Shown: positions 2,898 to 10,726 of the stretch, piece after piece
How positions within the stretch are numbered: the stretch's first letter is position 1
How the letters are laid out: each line of letters starts with the position of its first letter
Virus record (IMG/VR): IMGVR_UViG_2681813236_000014
Coordinates: 1-11,010 of that record
DNA: 11,010 bases
Source of the DNA: a virus
Lineage: Duplodnaviria > Heunggongvirae > Uroviricota > Caudoviricetes
Reading direction: 5' to 3' (one strand)
Made by a program: the position numbers and the translations under genes
Notes under the pieces: model-generated
What the model saw: only the letters and a program-made list of their open reading frames with translations
Databases searched by the model: none
Told to the model about the DNA's origin: nothing

Positions 2898-3122
2898 ATG
2901 AATCAAAATACACAATTTCAATCACTAACAGATCGCGTAATTCGTGAGGATGAATGTCGTAAGTTAACAGGCGTCAGCCGTACTACACGCTACGAACTGG
3001 AGAAGAAAGGGGGCTTTCCGTCTCGCCGTAATCTTGGGGGGCGTTCTGTAGGCTGGTTGCTTTCCGAAGTTATGGACTGGGTGCAAAGCCGTGACCGCGT
3101 TAATTCAGGTAAGGCAGCGTAA
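2898..3122 (+). CDS. alpA: AlpA-family transcriptional regulator / excisionase-like (74 aa)
   Basis: HTH-containing small protein (LTGVSRTTRYELEKKGGFPSRRNLGGRSVGWLLSEVMDWVQS) typical of AlpA family; RBS GAGGG upstream; standard position after int in P4-like and PICI elements. Confidence 0.8.
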   Translation: MNQNTQFQSLTDRVIREDECRKLTGVSRTTRYELEKKGGFPSRRNLGGRSVGWLLSEVMDWVQSRDRVNSGKAA

Positions 3123-3140
3123 AGGGGAGCATATGACATA

Positions 3141-3168
3141 TAAAACAAAGGCGACCGGGGGCGGTCGC
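3141..3168 (-). terminator. Putative intrinsic terminator for the leftward regulator operon
   Basis: Perfect 8-bp GC-rich stem GGCGACCG/CGGTCGCC (3149-3156, 3161-3168) with 4-nt loop. On the minus strand it is followed by a U-rich run (complement of aaaacaaa, 3141-3148); no T-run on the plus strand. Confidence 0.5.
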
Positions 3169-3236
3169 CAATGGATACACACTAAACTTGAACGCATCGC
3201 CAACAATGCCACATTTGCGGCTGGTGGGCAATGTGA

Positions 3237-3416
3237 TCAGTCAGATTTGGTTCGTTCCAAGGTTTGCAACGAGAGCTTTTTCCTGTGCTCTTTAAGGAAT
3301 TTCTCAAGAGCAAACGAACAAGGTGCGAATCTTTCTGATTCATGTTCATGCGCTATATTTTTGCGTCGTCTCTTACGAGTTGGTGATGGTGTTTTGGTTG
3401 ATTCTGTGTCGCTCAT
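3237..3416 (-). CDS. Possible small basic protein (59 aa), below the ORF-track cutoff
   Basis: Manual translation of the minus strand gives MSDTESTKTPSPTRKRRRKNIAHEHESERFAPCSFALEKFLKEHRKKLSLQTLERTKSD with an AGGA RBS 6 nt upstream; sits between the RHH gene and the minus-strand terminator. Hand-derived, so coordinates could be off by a few nt. Confidence 0.3.
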   Translation of the reverse strand: MSDTESTKTPSPTRKRRRKNIAHEHESERFAPCSFALEKFLKEHRKKLSLQTLERTKSD

Positions 3417-3473
3417 GGTGCTGTCCTGTAAAGCAATGCGCCTGCGTTCCTCAAACTATGGCGCTGATAGTGG

Positions 3474-3779
3474 CTATTCCTGCTCTTTGACCTTGCGTCG
3501 CTGGAGTTCTTCACGCGCGACGGTGACGAGTTGCCCGATCTCCTCGGCGGCTTTGACTCCGATTTTTTCCACCTGCGCTAGGGCATCGAGCGAAGAAACC
3601 AGGAGGTTTTCTCCGCTTCCTTCTGCCTGGCGGCGGGCGATTTCACCGCGCATGGCGGTTACTATGAATCCGGCGTTGCTTTCACCGTCCAGTTTTACGG
3701 ATTCCATGCCTTCAATAACATCATGCGGGATCCGAGCTGTCAGTGATTGTGATTTTGCGTTTTTTGAACCTGTAGCCAT
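3474..3779 (-). CDS. Putative ribbon-helix-helix (CopG/Arc-like) DNA-binding regulator, 101 aa; candidate island repressor
   Basis: Strong RBS GAGAGGA 6 nt before the ATG at 3779 (the ORF-track start at 3794 is a TTG without RBS). N-terminus SLTARIPHDVIEGMESV fits a beta-strand/helix RHH pattern. Divergent from the pri operon across an operator-rich region. Confidence 0.6.
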   Translation of the reverse strand: MATGSKNAKSQSLTARIPHDVIEGMESVKLDGESNAGFIVTAMRGEIARRQAEGSGENLLVSSLDALAQVEKIGVKAAEEIGQLVTVAREELQRRKVKEQE

Positions 3780-3800
3780 CTGTAATCCTCTCAATGAAAG

Positions 3801-3877
3801 TGTAAGACAATATACACATAAAAAGTCTTACATAAAAGCATTGACATGTAAGCCACCTATAAATAAAGTTACTTACA
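3801..3877. promoter_or_regulatory. Divergent promoter/operator region: two TGTAAG-N19/20-CTTACA inverted-repeat operators plus rightward promoter (-35 TTGACA 3841-3846, -10 TAAAGT 3864-3869)
   Basis: Seen directly: TGTAAG at 3801-3806 and 3847-3852; CTTACA at 3827-3832 and 3872-3877. The second pair overlaps the promoter elements. Confidence 0.5.
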
Positions 3878-3975
3878 CCTTGTTAATGCAAGGTGCAGAA
3901 ACGACGAAACCCCGCACTGTAGGAGCAGTAACGGGGCTTCTAACCACCAACGATAGCAAGATTATCGAGGCAGCT

Positions 3976-4179
3976 ATGAGAAATCATACCATACACCCGC
4001 AAGGGCGGGACTCGTACAACCTGAATAAATACATCTGGCGTTTTATCGCCCTGAGCACCGCACAACCGCGCGTGATTCACATCGTGGCCACCAGCGAACA
4101 GGAAGCACGCCAGCAATCCCCGGCTGGCTGCGTGATGGTATTCGCCGCCCGTATTCGTCAGGGGGTGTGCCATGCCTGA
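3976..4179 (+). CDS. Small protein (67 aa), first gene of the rightward operon; possibly Icd-like cell-division-inhibitor family (weak recollection)
   Basis: First in-frame ATG after the promoter, RBS GAGG; MRNHTIHPQGRDSYNLNKYIWRFIALSTAQPRVIHIVATSEQEARQQSPAGCVMVFAARIRQGVCHA. The rest of the 362-aa ORF-track frame upstream is antisense to the RHH gene and not credible. Confidence 0.5.
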   Translation: MRNHTIHPQGRDSYNLNKYIWRFIALSTAQPRVIHIVATSEQEARQQSPAGCVMVFAARIRQGVCHA

Positions 4180-4492
4180 TATGTCAAATTACCAGTACCT
4201 GATTAATCCGCATTTTAACTGTGAGCATGATATTGCTAAAAAGATTTATTCCGCTGCGGATGGGGCTACTGACAATATATCAATGGCTGTTGCGTCAATT
4301 GGTAGCCTGATGTGGCATGCGTCAGAAAATGAGGACTATGACGAAAAGGCCATGCGCATTGATATGGGGAATATCGGTTTGTTACTGGCAATGCTTGGAC
4401 ATTTTGATATTTCGTTACGGTGCACCATTGAAAATGCCACAGATGCATTAAATGCTATAAAGAAAGCGAATACTGATTCAAATCGGGGATAA
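4172..4492 (+). CDS. Hypothetical protein (106 aa)
   Basis: Start overlaps the upstream stop (ATGCCTGA), RBS AGGGGG; in operon with the primase; no recognisable motif. Confidence 0.55.
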   Translation: MPDMSNYQYLINPHFNCEHDIAKKIYSAADGATDNISMAVASIGSLMWHASENEDYDEKAMRIDMGNIGLLLAMLGHFDISLRCTIENATDALNAIKKANTDSNRG

Positions 4493-4498
4493 ATAATC

Positions 4499-4798
4499 AT
4501 GAGAACGTATTTATCTGGCTTGACTGCCAGCGGTTATGCACACCCCCAAATTATCCCCGGCGCTATTTATCTGGATAAGAACGGTAACAGAGTAACGGTA
4601 AAAGAACTGATGTTTGACCGTGTGTATTTTATCCGTGATGGCTATTCATTTCTTAGTTCGCTGAACGTGGAGATCTTTATTAGCAGATTCAGGCGGGAAA
4701 TCCCGCTTTCCAGAAATAACCATGTGTCATGTATGGATGTTGATAAAAAACTACAGGAACTAAAAAACATGATTGCCGCGTGGAGAGAGCAGAAATGA
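4499..4798 (+). CDS. Hypothetical protein (99 aa)
   Basis: Stop overlaps the primase ATG at 4795 (ATGA), suggesting translational coupling; no recognisable motif. Confidence 0.55.
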   Translation: MRTYLSGLTASGYAHPQIIPGAIYLDKNGNRVTVKELMFDRVYFIRDGYSFLSSLNVEIFISRFRREIPLSRNNHVSCMDVDKKLQELKNMIAAWREQK

Positions 4799-6612
4799 AA
4801 AAAGCGCCAAATTTAAAACACCAGCCGCGTGACAAAATGACGGAAGTCATCATTTTTGCGGGTAGTGATGCGTGGGCACATGCGAAACAGTGGCAGGAAC
4901 AGGACGGGCGACTGGCTGGCGATAACGTGCCACCTGTCTGGCTTGGAGAGCAACAACTTGCCGAACTGGACAACCTGCAAATCGTACCGGACGGACGCTA
5001 TCGCGTGCGTCTCTATCAGGCGGGGTTATTGCGGCCGGGGCTTGTTAATACCATCGGGCAGAAACTGGCAGTGGCAGGTGTCAGGGATGCTGATTATTAC
5101 CCTGAAGGAATGCACAGCCAGAAACGGGAGAACTGGCGCGAATATCTGGAACGTGAACGGGCAGAGCAGGCGGAAAAGAAAAAGGTAGTTGAACTGCCTG
5201 TAAAGAAAAAAGAGCGGGTAAAAGACGATAACGCGTCATCACTGGCGCTTAACCAGATGGGAGCAAGTCAACGCGGCGAAGTTCTCCTGGCACATTATGG
5301 CGGTGAACTGGCGATTCATGCTGACTCTGACACTGTTCACCATTACAACGGCGTTGTATGGGAGCCAGTACAGGATAAAGAATTACAGCGAGCTATGGCA
5401 CAGATTTTCATTGATGCGGAGATCAGCTATTCGCAGAACGCCATTAAATCGGCGGTCGATACCATGAAGTTAAGTTTGCCTGTAATGGGGAATACAGCCC
5501 GTAACCTGATTGGATTCAGTAACGGGGTATTTGATACCAGAACAGGTAATTTTCGGGAGCATAACAAAAACGACTGGTTGTTAATTGCCAGTGAATTACC
5601 TTTCAGCCCACCAGCAGAGGGGGAAACGCTGGCAACACATGCGCCGAATTTCTGGAAGTGGTTACGCCGTTCGGTGGCTGAGAATGACCGCAAGGCGGAT
5701 CGCGTACTGGCTGCATTATTCATGGTGCTGGCGAACCGGTACGACTGGCAGTTATTCATTGAGGTAACAGGTCCAGGGGGAAGTGGTAAAAGCGTGATGG
5801 CGGAGATTTGCACCATGCTGGCGGGTAAGGCCAACACAGTATCGGCAAGCATGAAGGCGCTGGAAGATGCAAGGGAACGCGCGTTAGTGGTTGGCTTTTC
5901 GCTGATTATCATGCCGGATATGACCCGCTACGCTGGTGATGGGGCAGGGATTAAGGCTATTACAGGCGGTGACAAGGTGGCAATTGACCCGAAACACAAA
6001 GCCCCCTACTCAACGCGTATTCCGGCAGTAGTGCTGGCGGTTAACAATAACGCCATGTCATTCAGTGACCGCAGCGGGGGGATCTCACGTCGTCGGGTGA
6101 TATTCAATTTTTCGGAAGTTGTACCGGAGAACGAACGTGATCCAATGCTGGCGGAAAAAATAGAAGGTGAGCTGGCGGTAGTGATTCGCCATCTGCTTAC
6201 ACGGTTTGCTGACCAGGACGAAGCCAGACGCCTGTTATATGAGCAGCAGAAATCTGAAGAAGCACTGGCGATAAAGCGAGAGGGGGATTCGCTGGTGGAC
6301 TTCTGCGGCTATCTCATGGCGTCGGTAATGTGTGATGGCCTGTTAGTGGGTAATGCTGAAATTGTGCCATTCAGCCCACGCAGGTATCTCTATCATGCCT
6401 ATCTGGCTTATATGAGGGCACATGGGTTTGGTAAACCTGTAACACTGACGCGCTTCGGTAAAGATATGCCGGGGGCAATGGCGGAATATGGCAGGGAGTA
6501 TATGAAACGGAAAACGAAGCACGGTTTGCGTTCAAACGTGACACTGACGGAGGAATCAGAAGACTGGATGCCATCATGTGTATCGGTCACTAATGACGAT
6601 AGCAAAAATTAA
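4795..6612 (+). CDS. P4-family primase/helicase (replication initiator, pri-rep), ~605 aa
   Basis: Walker A GPGGSGKS (5769-5792) in the C-terminal helicase-like domain; large N-terminal domain; iteron origin immediately downstream. Start chosen at the ATG at 4795 (RBS GGAGAG, ATGA overlap) rather than the GTG at 4780. Confidence 0.88.
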   Translation: MKKAPNLKHQPRDKMTEVIIFAGSDAWAHAKQWQEQDGRLAGDNVPPVWLGEQQLAELDNLQIVPDGRYRVRLYQAGLLRPGLVNTIGQKLAVAGVRDADYYPEGMHSQKRENWREYLERERAEQAEKKKVVELPVKKKERVKDDNASSLALNQMGASQRGEVLLAHYGGELAIHADSDTVHHYNGVVWEPVQDKELQRAMAQIFIDAEISYSQNAIKSAVDTMKLSLPVMGNTARNLIGFSNGVFDTRTGNFREHNKNDWLLIASELPFSPPAEGETLATHAPNFWKWLRRSVAENDRKADRVLAALFMVLANRYDWQLFIEVTGPGGSGKSVMAEICTMLAGKANTVSASMKALEDARERALVVGFSLIIMPDMTRYAGDGAGIKAITGGDKVAIDPKHKAPYSTRIPAVVLAVNNNAMSFSDRSGGISRRRVIFNFSEVVPENERDPMLAEKIEGELAVVIRHLLTRFADQDEARRLLYEQQKSEEALAIKREGDSLVDFCGYLMASVMCDGLLVGNAEIVPFSPRRYLYHAYLAYMRAHGFGKPVTLTRFGKDMPGAMAEYGREYMKRKTKHGLRSNVTLTEESEDWMPSCVSVTNDDSKN

Positions 6613-6620
6613 ACTTATGG

Positions 6621-6850
6621 AATAACTGTTCACCACTGTTCACCCCGTCATAAATGTCTTTTATATCATTATATTATAGGGTGAACAGTTATTTATGAAC
6701 TGTTCACCAAACTATTCACTGTTCACCTTTTTGATTGTTTATTGAGCTGCAAGGGTGAACAGTGGTGAACAGTTGGTGAATAGTTTTTGTGAAACTGTTC
6801 ACCCCTTAACATTATGAATTGAAAGAGAAAATAGCAAAAGGTGAACACGT
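6621..6850. repeat. Iteron cluster / putative origin of replication
   Basis: About 10 copies of the 10-mer ACTGTTCACC in both orientations: direct at 6625, 6635, 6699, 6718, 6794; inverted GGTGAACAGT at 6680, 6754, 6764, plus degenerate copies at 6775 and 6840. An AT-rich stretch lies between them (6645-6679). Confidence 0.75.
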
Positions 6851-7003: not shown

Positions 7004-7717
7004 TTAGTTAGTTTTGAAAAATTTATTGAATAACTCTAAGCTTTCAGGATGTATATATTGAGTAGGGTAACTGATACGTTGTGAGCGTCCAATTTTTATT
7101 GTGTTTTTTTTCGTCTTCCCAAAAAATAGATTCTTCCATGTTAAAATGTTTCCGTGATTATATTTATTGTCTTTTAATCGCTTTTCCAAATAACCATCTG
7201 TGATTTTATATTTATGTGGCGGTACATTCCTTGAGTGCTCAATTTTCCGTAATTCTACTTCTAGCATATCTATTAGCTCACCTTTAGGGGTTTTGAGTTG
7301 ATAATTTAGTAAGCGGCAGTATCTGCGTAATTCCCATACAGTTCTATCTAATGTAATAATTTCAAACCCATTAGTATACATGACTTTTTGGAAGTATCTA
7401 TTTGGTCCTTGGTCATTTAGATACTCTATGAAATATATGCTTTTATCACTCAGATCTAGTTTAATATATGGAATATCATTAATTTTTTTAATTCCTGCAA
7501 CAAGATCATGTCCAATATTTTTAACAGGGATTCTATTAAAAATAAGAATGCATTTTATATATTTTTCAATTGCTTGTTGAGACATCCATAAAAATTGGAA
7601 AGGAAGATTGTTTTTAAAGCAAATACGAGCAGTTAGATAATCTTGATCAGCCATGTCTCTGAAAGATCTTTTAGCCGCATTATTCAGAAAAATTTTTTGA
7701 GTATCAGTAAGTTCCAT
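7004..7717 (-). CDS. AT-rich cargo protein with HEPN-like N-terminal domain (237 aa); candidate RNase-type defense/abortive-infection effector
   Basis: RBS AGGAAG; N-terminal helices with HEPN-like pattern (AAKRSFRDMADQDYLTARI...QQAIEKYIKCIL...NIGHDLVAGIKKI); roughly 30% GC by eye versus ~50% in flanks; opposite strand to surrounding island genes. Confidence 0.7.
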   Translation of the reverse strand: MELTDTQKIFLNNAAKRSFRDMADQDYLTARICFKNNLPFQFLWMSQQAIEKYIKCILIFNRIPVKNIGHDLVAGIKKINDIPYIKLDLSDKSIYFIEYLNDQGPNRYFQKVMYTNGFEIITLDRTVWELRRYCRLLNYQLKTPKGELIDMLEVELRKIEHSRNVPPHKYKITDGYLEKRLKDNKYNHGNILTWKNLFFGKTKKNTIKIGRSQRISYPTQYIHPESLELFNKFFKTN

Positions 7718-7863: not shown

Positions 7864-8073
7864 GTGAGTTGTATTAATGACCTGAACACAGGCGATATCA
7901 GAGGCGGTTCCGTTCATCTGGATGCGCAGACCGTTATGCGCCTTAAGCAGTACAGGATCGACCATATAAATCATCATCCTGACCAACCATTACCAGGTGT
8001 GGCGCAGATTGTCAGGCATGCCGTAAACGCCTGGCTTAATCAGAGTGGTTTTGCATCGGAGAGTGAGCAATGA
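7864..8073 (+). CDS. Hypothetical small protein (69 aa, GTG start) preceding the capsid gene
   Basis: RBS AGAGGAAG 5 nt before the GTG; stop overlaps the next ATG (ATGA); function not assignable. Confidence 0.5.
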   Translation: MSCINDLNTGDIRGGSVHLDAQTVMRLKQYRIDHINHHPDQPLPGVAQIVRHAVNAWLNQSGFASESEQ

Positions 8074-9983
8074 ATCACTGGTACACCATTAAGGCGGCGG
8101 ATGTTCGCGGAGCGGCGGATATATCTATCTATGAGGAGATTGGCGGCTTCGGTGTTACTGCAAAGCAGTTCGCGGAAGACCTGAAAGCCCTTGGCGATGT
8201 TTCACATATCAATCTGAGGATCCATTCACCAGGTGGTGATGTGTTTGAAGGCATCGCCATCTATAACCTGCTACGGAATCATCCGGCAGACATTACGGTT
8301 TATATCGATGGTGTTGCGGCTTCAATGGCTTCGGTTGTCGCAATGGCTGGCGATCGTGTTGTTATGCCGGAGAACGCCATGATGATGATCCATAAGCCGT
8401 GGGGTATCTCTGGCGGAAATGCTGGCGATATGCGTGATTATGCTGATTTGCTGGATAAGGTGGAAACCGTGTTAATCCCTGCTTATGCCAGAAAAACGGG
8501 CAAATCAGCACAGGAAATTACCGCCATGCTGGAGGATGAAACCTGGATGGATGGGAAAGAATGCCTTAAGCACGGTTTTGCTGATGAATTGTTGCCATCC
8601 GTCAGAGCAATGGCGCGAATTGAATCGAAACGCACAGGAGATTTTTTACATATGCCGGAAACCATTAAAGGAATGATTACACCGCCACAGGGAGCGGCAA
8701 ATATTGCTGGTAATGAACAGAAGCGCATCAATGGAATAAGTGAAGTGTTTAGCTTGTTCGGCAGTCGTTACGACGGGATCAAAATGGCGTGTCTGGAAGA
8801 TGCATCATGTACACCGGAAATGGCCCGTGAAAAGCTGTTGAACGAGCTGGGGCGCGAGTCCACGCCATCCAATAAAAATACCTCGCCTCATATCTATGCC
8901 GGAAACGGAAACATAACAGGTGATGCAATTCGTCAGGGGCTTTATTCCCGTCTTGGGTATGAACGCCCTGAACGAGGCAACCCTTACGCGATGATGAGCC
9001 TTTTTGAAATGGCCCAGGCATCACTGGTTGATCGTGGTATCACTGTGAGCGGTTTTATTAATCGCTCGCAGGTTGTTAATGCGGCTTTTACACACAGCAG
9101 CAGCGATTTTTCTCATATTCTGGCTGGTGGCGCTGAGAAATCAGTACTGAAAGGCTGGCAGGACAGCGGCGAAACGTTCCAGAAATGGACGCGTACCGGT
9201 TCGCTTTCAAACTTTCATGAAGCAAAGCGCGTTGGTCTGAATGGTTTTTCAAAGCTGGATAAAGTACCGGAAGGCGCGGAATATAAATACATCACCACTA
9301 GCGATAAAGGTGTACCTATTGCGCTGGCCACGTACGGGAATATTTTTTCCGTTACCCGTCAGGCCATTATCAACGATGACCTGACCCAGTTAACTACAAT
9401 CCCCATGGCGATGGGACGCGCAGCTGCCAGAACAGTTGGCAATCTGGTTTATCTCCTGTTAACCAGCAACGGCAAGTTTACGGATGGTAAAGCGTTATTC
9501 CATGCCGATCATAAAAATCTTATTGCGAAGGATATGGACATGGAGGGGCTTAACGAAGCCCGTAAGCTGATGCGCCTCCAGGAAGACGCTAACGGCGATT
9601 CGCTGAATATTACCCCCGCATTTGTCCTGGTCCCCGCCGCGCTGGAGTCTGCCGCACATCGCGCCATTCTGTCATCGTCATCACTCTTTCCGGTTGATGG
9701 CGTGGGCACTATCAATCAGAACCCCGGCATCATTAACGTGGTGAAAGATATGGCGGAGGTAATCGTTGAGCCACGTCTTGATAAAGCCAATAACAAGGAG
9801 TGGTATGTGGCAGCGGCGAAGGGTATGGACACGATAGAGGTCGCTTATCTTGATGGTATTGATACGCCATATCTTGAGGAGCAGGAGGGCTTTACTGTTG
9901 ATGGCGTCGCCTGGAAGGTGCGCATAGATGCAGGTGTCGCGGCCCTCGACTATCGCGGATTACTGAAATCGAGTGGAGCATGA
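8070..9983 (+). CDS. Prohead protease (ClpP/S14-like) fused to major capsid protein (637 aa)
   Basis: N-terminus has ClpP-like motifs (IHSPGGDV, GVAASMASVVAMAGD, MMIHKPWG). C-terminal ~400 aa resemble phage major head proteins (DGKALFHADHKN recalls Mu gpT-like DGKPFFAADHP). Strong RBS; intrinsic terminator immediately downstream. Confidence 0.85.
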   Translation: MNHWYTIKAADVRGAADISIYEEIGGFGVTAKQFAEDLKALGDVSHINLRIHSPGGDVFEGIAIYNLLRNHPADITVYIDGVAASMASVVAMAGDRVVMPENAMMMIHKPWGISGGNAGDMRDYADLLDKVETVLIPAYARKTGKSAQEITAMLEDETWMDGKECLKHGFADELLPSVRAMARIESKRTGDFLHMPETIKGMITPPQGAANIAGNEQKRINGISEVFSLFGSRYDGIKMACLEDASCTPEMAREKLLNELGRESTPSNKNTSPHIYAGNGNITGDAIRQGLYSRLGYERPERGNPYAMMSLFEMAQASLVDRGITVSGFINRSQVVNAAFTHSSSDFSHILAGGAEKSVLKGWQDSGETFQKWTRTGSLSNFHEAKRVGLNGFSKLDKVPEGAEYKYITTSDKGVPIALATYGNIFSVTRQAIINDDLTQLTTIPMAMGRAAARTVGNLVYLLLTSNGKFTDGKALFHADHKNLIAKDMDMEGLNEARKLMRLQEDANGDSLNITPAFVLVPAALESAAHRAILSSSSLFPVDGVGTINQNPGIINVVKDMAEVIVEPRLDKANNKEWYVAAAKGMDTIEVAYLDGIDTPYLEEQEGFTVDGVAWKVRIDAGVAALDYRGLLKSSGA

Positions 9984-10061: not shown

Positions 10062-10240
10062 AAAAAGGCTAGTTTTTGCATTTTCATTCGTCATCATCAT
10101 CTTCATATTGTATTGAATTTTAAGCATTTTTATTTTTGGTATGTTAATTTTACTTGTTTTATGCTCAACATATAGCGCATTTTTTGACCTCTTCTGAAAG
10201 TTGTTCGCAAGATGCATGTTTAAAACATTCTGGAGCGGGT

Positions 10241-10726
10241 ATGGATCGAGAACTGAAAAATCTGATGCTGAACATTAATCAACTGGCGGCGATAGCGGGA
10301 ATATGTCGTCAGACTGCGGCGGCAAGGCTGAAAAACATCCAGCCAGCCGGAGGGCATGACAAGCTGAAACTCTATCGGGTGACTGACATTCTGACCTGTT
10401 TTCTTGATCTTCCCGTTCCGGCATCACTGGAAGAAATGGAGCCACATGACCGTAAGGCCTGGTATCAGTCCGAACGTGAACGCCTCAAGTTCGAACAGGA
10501 AACGGCGCAACTCATACCCGCCGATGATGTGCGAAAAGAGATGGCTATATGGGGGGAAATCGTAAGCGAGGAACTGGCAAAACTCCCCAATATTCTGGCA
10601 CGTGATGCCGGGCTTAAACCGATGGCAGTAAACAGAGTGCAGTCAATTATTGACGATTTGTGTAATCAGATTATCAGCCGGATGGTAAAAAATGACGTAG
10701 TGAATGAGGTCGCAAAACAGGCATGA
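10241..10726 (+). CDS. Small terminase subunit, Nu1-like (161 aa)
   Basis: RBS GGAG 7 nt before the ATG at 10241 (the ORF-track start at 10154 lies inside the cos region and lacks an RBS). N-terminal HTH (LNINQLAAIAGICRQTAAARLKN) and overall layout resemble lambda Nu1; immediately downstream of cos. Confidence 0.72.
   Translation: MDRELKNLMLNINQLAAIAGICRQTAAARLKNIQPAGGHDKLKLYRVTDILTCFLDLPVPASLEEMEPHDRKAWYQSERERLKFEQETAQLIPADDVRKEMAIWGEIVSEELAKLPNILARDAGLKPMAVNRVQSIIDDLCNQIISRMVKNDVVNEVAKQA

Follow-up and report, generated by a model that had tools for sequence, protein, structure and literature searches.

A Putative Antisense-Encoded Repressor and Its Candidate Operators in the Control Region of a Gram-Negative Phage-Inducible Chromosomal Island

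Gene Content of the Island

Judged by its gene content, the DNA of 11,010 nt analysed here (the whole of which is referred to as the window) is a Gram-negative phage-inducible chromosomal island (PICI) of Escherichia coli. Family scans identified int, alpA, a primase, a protease-capsid fusion and a DUF1441 small-terminase-like protein; int, alpA and the primase gene share one orientation, a probable origin follows the primase gene, and the element is small and carries neither tail nor lysis genes. The integrase gene (723–1943, + strand) is followed by a gene for a DUF6387 protein (1940–2794, +) and by alpA (2898–3122, +), the 74-aa product of which matches the Pfam family Phage_AlpA with 58.8 bits. 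AlpA is the known activator of Gram-negative PICIs (PMC6092414). Two genes on the minus strand come next in the map, namely an ORF for a very basic protein of 59 aa (3237–3416, −; phrog_21027, E 5e-15) and the gene of a 101-aa regulator of the YlcI/YnfO family (3474–3779, −; NF041551). The rightward operon starts with the gene of a 67-aa Icd-like protein (3976–4179, +; NF033153, 71.2 bits; phrog_6196), which overlaps the following small ORF (4172–4492, +) by 8 nt, and continues with genes for a DUF4222 protein (4499–4798, +) and a P4-type primase (4780–6612, +).

Directly after the primase gene, at 6625–6805, lie at least nine copies of the iteron-like repeats ACTGTTCACC / GGTGAACAGT in both orientations, which are probably the iterons of the island replication origin. 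The interval between origin and capsid gene holds an accessory slot with a gene for a HEPN-domain protein (7004–7717, −), and the map is completed by the ClpP-like protease/major capsid fusion (8070–9983, +) and the DUF1441 small-terminase-like protein (10154–10726, +). A 2-kb stretch that includes the control region discussed below is 100% identical in an island of E. coli Ecol_224 (~10.5 kb, in the rcnR/thiM interval), and despite this identity the HEPN slot of that island is annotated differently. The HEPN, DUF6387 and small ORFs have no match in PADLOC, and no tRNA-like element was found by ARAGORN.

Predicted Operators and Promoters between the Divergent Genes

The segment from 3780 to 3975 separates the leftward regulator gene from the Icd-like gene and contains four copies of TGTAAG, at 3801–3806 (+), 3827–3832 (−), 3847–3852 (+) and 3872–3877 (−), with one further copy in the 11 kb, at 6196. 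The first-pass annotation had described these as two inverted pairs with spacers of 20 and 19 nt, the second pair overlapping a rightward promoter with a perfect −35 element, and both descriptions are borne out by the sequence in all coordinates. The first pair forms a perfect 8/8 inverted repeat (TGTAAGAC/GTCTTACA, 3801–3808/3825–3832), and grouping the four copies into two nested pairs is as good a reading as grouping them into two adjacent ones.

As 9-mers, the four putative operators are site a (GTGTAAGAC, 3800–3808, +), over the predicted start of the leftward promoter P_L; site b (ATGTAAGAC, 3825–3833, −), in the spacer of P_L and overlapping its weak −35; site c (ATGTAAGCC, 3846–3854, +), which abuts the −35 of the rightward promoter P_R and lies in its spacer; and site d (GTGTAAGTA, 3870–3878, −), over the predicted P_R start. 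P_R was found by a promoter scan and comprises TTGACA (3841–3846, +), a 17-nt spacer and TAAAGT (3864–3869, +), so that 10 of 12 consensus positions are matched over 3841–3869; TTGAnn stands at offset 62 in 21 of 31 loci. The predicted P_L has its −10 element TATATT at 3809–3814 (−), with TAnnnT at the same offset (31–36; 30–35 in the window) in 23 of 31 loci; it has a poor −35 (TTTATG, 3831–3836, −) and failed the promoter scan. The layout is mirror-symmetric about 3839, and in each promoter one site occupies the spacer and another covers the start.

Judged from the window by itself, the hexamer cluster departs only modestly from chance (p ~0.07); of 1000 shuffles that preserved dinucleotides, 6.9% had four or more copies of some hexamer in a span of 80 bp. 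The cluster can be taken as real because the positions of the sites are conserved across 30 related loci: in nearly all of these, 9-bp sites lie ~22, 45, 68, and 90 nt from the regulator ATG, whatever their sequence. This comparison set spans about ten genera, with 22 loci from Enterobacter, Xenorhabdus, Photorhabdus, Erwinia, Serratia, Yersinia, Pantoea, Klebsiella, Pectobacterium and others, and also takes in seven further E. coli islands, three more E. coli islands being compared by annotation only. Near alpA, no further operator-like sites were found beyond chance. Two contigs labelled Pseudomonas lundensis and Martelella alba (L021, L007) carry this otherwise enterobacterial module, which may reflect contamination, mislabelling or transfer.

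A YlcI/YnfO Family Protein with a Probable RHH Domain

The product of the leftward gene matches the NCBIfam model NF041551 over residues 9–50 with 71.4 bits (cut-off 30), and the identical protein in RefSeq is named as a member of the YlcI/YnfO family. An RHH-like N-terminus had been proposed for it, and the evidence makes this probable. No curated RHH profile matches the regulator family at its threshold; below threshold, PF07704 matches 19 of 26 members (best E 0.001), and RHH_1, TacA1, CB_ParB_C and HicB-like profiles match a few of 53 members, the weak RHH_1 and TacA1 matches falling in the more distant ones. The AF2 model (pLDDT 82) consists of an extended N-terminus, helices at 19–28 and 35–54, and one long helix at 59–100; its N-terminal part is superposable on known RHH domains and follows their order of a strand and then two helices, and the monomer model itself contains no β-strand. 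In hhalign, SLTARIPHDV of the regulator is placed weakly on FNLRWPREV of Arc (E 0.004, probability 8%). The N-terminal domain (residues ~9–54) thus has a probable RHH fold.

A Foldseek search of the full-length model against the PDB returned nothing below E 4.9, an outcome that we would guess is probably dominated by the long C-terminal helix. Profile searches against PDB sequences gave only a weak helix-hairpin-helix (HhH)-like match (Hef, E 0.006) and topoisomerase V, both of which were rejected. The C-terminal half (residues 59–100; 3474–3650) does contain an HhH-like motif, L..VE.IG.KA..EI, with I73 and G74 invariant; its match to the Hef HhH domain is weak (E 0.006), but AF2 draws one continuous helix there.

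Among the candidates of a word-index search, 256 relatives of the regulator were found at E ≤ 0.001. The family is small, as only 76 cluster representatives exist among 1.84 billion proteins, and its named members are mostly from Enterobacterales. The regulator is absent from all 50,697 phage records searched, only one of which, of 16.5 kb, matches the Icd-like gene in part. Short forms of 59–65 aa occur in several loci (L029, L030, L031, L033), that of the prototype island EcCICFT073 included, and their operators are short palindromes. The tail of the short forms, inspected in those other than EcCICFT073, is RRKAKEQE/RRKAKEPE and nearly the same as in the 101-aa forms, which suggests that the short forms arose by internal deletion of the helical domain.

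The 59-aa ORF, which is probably co-transcribed with the upstream regulator gene, recurs at this location in six other E. coli islands with 59–83% identity and has a RefSeq annotation in CFT073 and in strain XM. Its presence could be read as a sign that the regulator is a minor, antitoxin-like protein, which autoregulates a two-gene leftward operon and only trims P_R, with AlpA as the sole switch. The closest structural matches of the regulator are indeed RHH antitoxins, a small conserved ORF does lie downstream of its gene, and the literature assigns control to AlpA. However, two of the four sites occupy the spacer and the start of the strong P_R, and their offsets are conserved in all genera; the 59-aa ORF has no match to a toxin family and was not found by tblastn in the more distant genera, hence we regard a merely auxiliary role as unlikely. 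In one locus (L038, 2277–3402), the operators are preceded upstream by small minus-strand genes in two tandem pairs, which may represent a duplicated regulator module.

A Long Open Frame on the Plus Strand and a One-Way Terminator

On the plus strand, a stop-free frame of 348 codons (3133–4179) begins at an ATG at 3133, with the Shine-Dalgarno (SD) sequence GGGGAG at 3124–3129 and the alpA stop codon at 3120–3122. The frame crosses the 59-aa ORF and the regulator gene in antisense and then passes through the AT-rich operator region, P_R and the leader, its final part encoding the Icd-like protein. Upstream of ATG 3976 it is open for 308 codons, back into the end of alpA, compared with 6 and 10 in the other frames, and within 3780–3975 it contains no stop codon, compared with 8 and 6 in the other two; a stop-free stretch over 3780–3975 arose in 1.3% of shuffles. 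The frame is open for 170–540 codons in 22 of 33 loci, across genera, and in many loci, too, an ATG with its own SD sequence follows the alpA stop codon immediately. It is closed in the other 11, most of which have a changed phase between the two start codons, and translated read-through therefore cannot be universal. The middle of the long frame gives a Ser/Cys/Arg-rich translation and evolves with no constraint at the protein level, and it seems to be translatability that is kept in it. The overlap is cheap, since the third codon positions of the two strands coincide in that phase. In some RefSeq genomes, the long frame is itself called “Icd-like protein,” with 134 or 305 aa (L036, 2928–3845; L031, 3217–3621), and in L036 the leftward regulator gene is unannotated where PGAP calls the long plus-strand ORF.

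On the same DNA, amino acid identity between loci is 0.64 in the regulator frame vs. 0.57 in the plus-strand frame, and the mean BLOSUM62 score of the replacements is +0.05 vs. −0.98, a difference in favor of the regulator frame in 81 of 81 pairs. Because conservation at the protein level favors its frame over the plus-strand frame, the leftward regulator is considered to be a real protein gene, and it also has an SD sequence, a family-model match and a confident predicted fold. It is unusual for a genuine protein gene to overlap in antisense with a frame that is kept open for translation alone.

The only terminator predicted between alpA and the regulator gene is an intrinsic one for the leftward transcript (3140–3169, −), made up of a hairpin at 3150–3169 and a T-tract at 3140–3149; on the plus strand, no T-tract accompanies this hairpin. 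EcCICFT073 has an equivalent hairpin with a one-sided T-tract. The first-pass annotation was thus right that alpA lacks a terminator of its own, and mistaken in calling alpA convergent with the replication operon: both run in the same direction, and alpA is convergent only with the leftward regulator gene.

Co-variation of the Sites with the Regulator N-Terminus

Across loci, the motif hardly changes in its outer GTG(T); its inner bases vary by lineage and track residues 10–17 of the regulator. Regulators with SLTAR at this position are found with GTGTAAGAC, those with LTTVR with GTGTGTTTC, both in E. coli and in Xenorhabdus/Photorhabdus, those with xKNxR with GTGTGTATT or GTGTGCATT, those with QISIR with GTGTGATTC, and those with QIVSR with GTGGCATKC. 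The palindromes that accompany the short regulator forms include GTGTTYAACAC, TGTGCGCACA and GTGGGCCAC. The N-terminal codons of the regulator are only 50–130 bp from the sites, and the co-variation could in part be linkage within one recombination block.

The proposal that the repeats are the operators of the regulator is well supported by this comparative evidence: they keep conserved positions over the strong P_R, and their sequence tracks the N-terminus of what would be an RHH repressor. The alternatives that the repeats are bound by AlpA, by a host factor or by the Icd-like protein, or that the leftward ORF is a shadow of the long plus-strand ORF, draw on the plus-strand frame being open across the whole region, on PGAP sometimes annotating the plus-strand ORF in place of the leftward gene, and on the PHROGs label “transcriptional repressor” for relatives of the Icd-like protein. 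This label most likely traces to the old P4 “cI” ORF annotation, and the motif tracks neither candidate, as an AlpA that is 92% identical (L029) goes with a different motif and the Icd-like proteins of five loci, at 87–93% identity, each go with a different one. Protein-level conservation, which the plus-strand frame lacks, together with the SD sequence, family match and confident fold of the leftward frame, also speaks against a shadow ORF, and we consider either alternative highly improbable.

A Structured Leader on the Rightward Transcript

Given a start near 3876, the leader of the P_R transcript is ~100 nt long, and three hairpins are predicted in it. The first, at the 5′ end, is a 7-bp hairpin CACCTTG/CAAGGTG (3876–3895, +). 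Five other loci, from several genera (L007, L009, L013, L016, L021), have a perfect DnaA-box sequence, TTATCCACA, at the predicted P_R start, just after site d; in the window, the place of this DnaA-box-like sequence is taken by the 7-bp hairpin. The second is a two-part hairpin (3906–3940, +), with an outer stem that includes CCCCG (3910–3914) and CGGGG (3932–3936) and an inner stem ACTG/CAGT, so that the short stem noted earlier in a leader of about 100 nt is present and is the core of a longer conserved structure; the same fold is found in 29 of 29 loci, at −11 to −24 kcal/mol. It is followed by a C/A-rich unpaired tract, TAACCACCAACG (3941–3952, +), which is nearly invariant in the leader alignment (A2). 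The third hairpin, CGATA/TATCG (3951–3955/3963–3967, +; feature span 3951–3970), is adjacent to the ribosome binding site, the first base of the SD sequence GAGG (3967–3970) being the last base of the stem.

The structure tested on alignment A2 comprised the hairpins at 3906–3940 and 3951–3967. In this structure, 86% of cells are paired compared with 29–43% with slid partners, changes on both sides occur in 10 of 18 pairs (in 4 of 5 for the hairpin at 3951–3967), and the covariation score was reached by 0 of 500 shuffles. Two of the three leader hairpins are therefore supported by compensatory changes. The alignment contains no G-U intermediates, and a palindrome at the DNA level is possible for that reason; an RNA structure is favored over a DNA palindrome because the arms are unequal and the loops variable. 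An intrinsic terminator or attenuator was not recognized at 3906–3940, where no plus-strand terminator was called and the stem is followed by TAACCACCAACG rather than by a U-tract. No Rfam family was found in the leader or in the whole window, the matches to SprD and P31 being weak, at chance level, and hence rejected. The sequence GGCTTCTAACCA resembles what we take to be boxA of nut/rrn antitermination sites, and is mentioned as a lead. Our best guess is that the leader hairpins control translation of the Icd-like protein or mRNA stability.

A Model for Silencing and Induction of the Island

The explanation that we favor, with slightly better than even confidence, is that 3780–3975 is the control region of the immunity (“Bro”) zone of the PICI, in which an RHH repressor with four sites shuts off P_R, and that induction is an AlpA-driven bypass. 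The YlcI/YnfO RHH protein would be made leftward from the weak P_L and would bind the four 9-bp sites a–d (~GTGTAAGAC), thereby shutting off the strong P_R, from which the Icd-like, DUF4222 and primase genes would be expressed, and limiting its own synthesis. When a helper phage switches on alpA, as has been published (PMC6092414), transcripts from the alpA promoter, translated meanwhile, would pass the leftward-only terminator, cross the regulator gene in antisense and reach the replication genes without use of P_R, and would collide with leftward transcription of the repressor gene. The repressor would then be bypassed, and perhaps interfered with, instead of being removed by a phage protein.

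In EcCICFT073, AlpA is required, and over-expression of AlpA alone induces the island without a helper (PMC6092414). A bypass fits this published AlpA-only induction, and a phage anti-repressor, although still conceivable, would be unnecessary. The first-pass annotation had instead proposed that the RHH protein is the master repressor of the island and is de-repressed by a helper-phage factor. Of this interpretation, the reading as repressor and operators is well supported by the comparisons and the role of master repressor is plausible, while nothing in the evidence points to de-repression by a helper protein, and the orientation given to alpA is wrong. The corresponding model, in which induction follows when a helper-phage protein binds and inactivates the master repressor as in staphylococcal pathogenicity islands (SaPIs), can claim that the regulator gene is divergent from the replication operon, like that of SaPI Stl (PMC6092414), that there are many specificity classes, as expected of immunity types, and that antirepressor-like genes (AntA/AntB, Rha or BRO-N) are present in some islands in the interval from alpA to the regulator gene. 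However, the window itself has no antirepressor gene, the AlpA results in EcCICFT073 (PMC6092414) speak against it, and by way of the open frame coupled to alpA, induction could proceed without an anti-repressor. We consider the SaPI-type model quite unlikely, and think it more likely that AlpA-driven read-through bypasses the repressor than that a phage protein removes it.

The complete module is present in EcCICFT073, where genes for the regulator, the small ORF and the Icd-like protein (C_RS30120, C_RS30800, and C_RS30125) are accompanied by the same promoters, GTGGGCCAC sites and leader in the intergenic region. The late locus tags of these three genes were probably added on re-annotation. 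Published papers on Gram-negative PICIs describe islands that are transcribed in one direction, and the 2018 description of these islands called the existence of such a repressor unclear. A survey of 2023, which defines a “Bro zone” that in several islands holds P4-like immunity RNAs, makes no reference to the YlcI/YnfO protein, and in a survey of 2026 YlcI/YnfO is merely an accessory “prophage-associated protein” (PMC13612085). In the literature searched, no description of the YlcI/YnfO gene as a PICI repressor was found. If the leftward gene and the operators are a repressor module, Gram-negative PICIs would have a divergent repressor/operator unit as in Gram-positive PICIs, within an immunity region built like that of P4, and both the silence of the island and the way AlpA overcomes it would be directly testable in EcCICFT073.

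A more far-reaching version, which we put forward as a tentative and rather doubtful generalization, is that Gram-negative PICIs have the YlcI/YnfO RHH protein as their immunity repressor, its gene lying antisense within a translated, alpA-coupled, eta-like frame. One AlpA-driven, ribosome-covered read-through would then have two effects, in that convergent transcription would silence the repressor gene and the replication genes would be reached in spite of the repressed promoter, and the many operator/protein classes would be immunity types that prevent cross-regulation of co-resident islands.

Comparison with Known Immunity Systems

With Stl (Rpr) of SaPIs and Gram-positive PICIs, the window shares a divergent regulator gene in the interval between int and the replication operon (PMC6092414). 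In contrast to the regulator described here, Stl does not belong to the YlcI/YnfO family and is inactivated by binding a helper-phage protein, whereas AlpA is the known inducer of Gram-negative PICIs. The antiterminator mechanism of AlpA from Pseudomonas aeruginosa was considered for the 74-aa AlpA of the window and rejected, as the former is an eight-helix, 21Q-like protein (PMC9371919).

The immI region of P1/P7 (c4 RNA, icd, ant) resembles the window in its Icd-type first cistron, its structured leader and the overlap with the next ORF, but the window has no detectable C4 RNA and its regulation would be exerted by a DNA-binding protein at the promoter. In the immI region of P22, the RHH repressors Mnt and Arc act at the divergent promoters P_ant and P_mnt, and in Mnt the RHH domain is followed by a C-terminal helical oligomerisation domain. 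The likeness to P22 lies in a small RHH repressor that is divergent from the repressed operon and in operators that overlap the promoters. However, there is no significant sequence relation (hhalign E 0.004–0.06, probability below 10%), the window has four sites 21–25 bp apart where P22 has one operator of 17–21 bp, and the target in the window would be a replication operon, as opposed to the antirepressor in P22.

The immunity region of satellite phage P4 (P_LL, vis and eta/kil, with P_LE internal) has the same layout as the window, where the 348-codon frame is the counterpart of eta/kil: an AlpA-family gene, then a translationally coupled long ORF that runs over an internal early promoter and a leader and has a Kil/Icd-like end, and then small ORFs and a P4-type primase. 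Transcription from a late promoter upstream can extend through the P4 immunity region (PMC10111431). The vis stop and the eta start of P4 overlap as ATGA at 8767, from where 152 open codons lead to the kil ATG, and the open eta frame spans P_LE, seqA/isrK and the CI/C4 RNA, with Kil as its end. Only transcription from the late promoter upstream leads to translation of eta, and this translation keeps transcripts from terminating within the immunity region (PMC10111431). The relation of the Icd-like protein to the P4 “cI” ORF is confined to a shared family annotation and layout, BLASTP being not significant.

The two regions differ in that P4 immunity is exerted by an RNA (CI; Rfam C4) through premature termination, whereas the window has a protein gene on the opposite strand and putative operators on the internal promoter. 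No C4, isrK or c4-a1b1 RNA was detected in the window by cmscan (E up to 10 on 3300–4400; gathering score on the whole window), while the same search finds C4 and isrK in P4 and in one E. coli locus, L034. Among the regulator-bearing loci, 19 of 20 are without C4 or isrK RNA, and L034 (3210–3398) has both systems in tandem: its regulator, operators and a leader nearly identical to that of the window precede, in the same frame, isrK and C4 RNAs and a kil gene of the P4 type, so that it looks like a hybrid of two immunity types. From these comparisons, the control region would be a satellite immunity region of the P4 type, where the place of the P4 immunity RNA is probably taken by an RHH protein that is encoded antisense and has its operators at the promoter.
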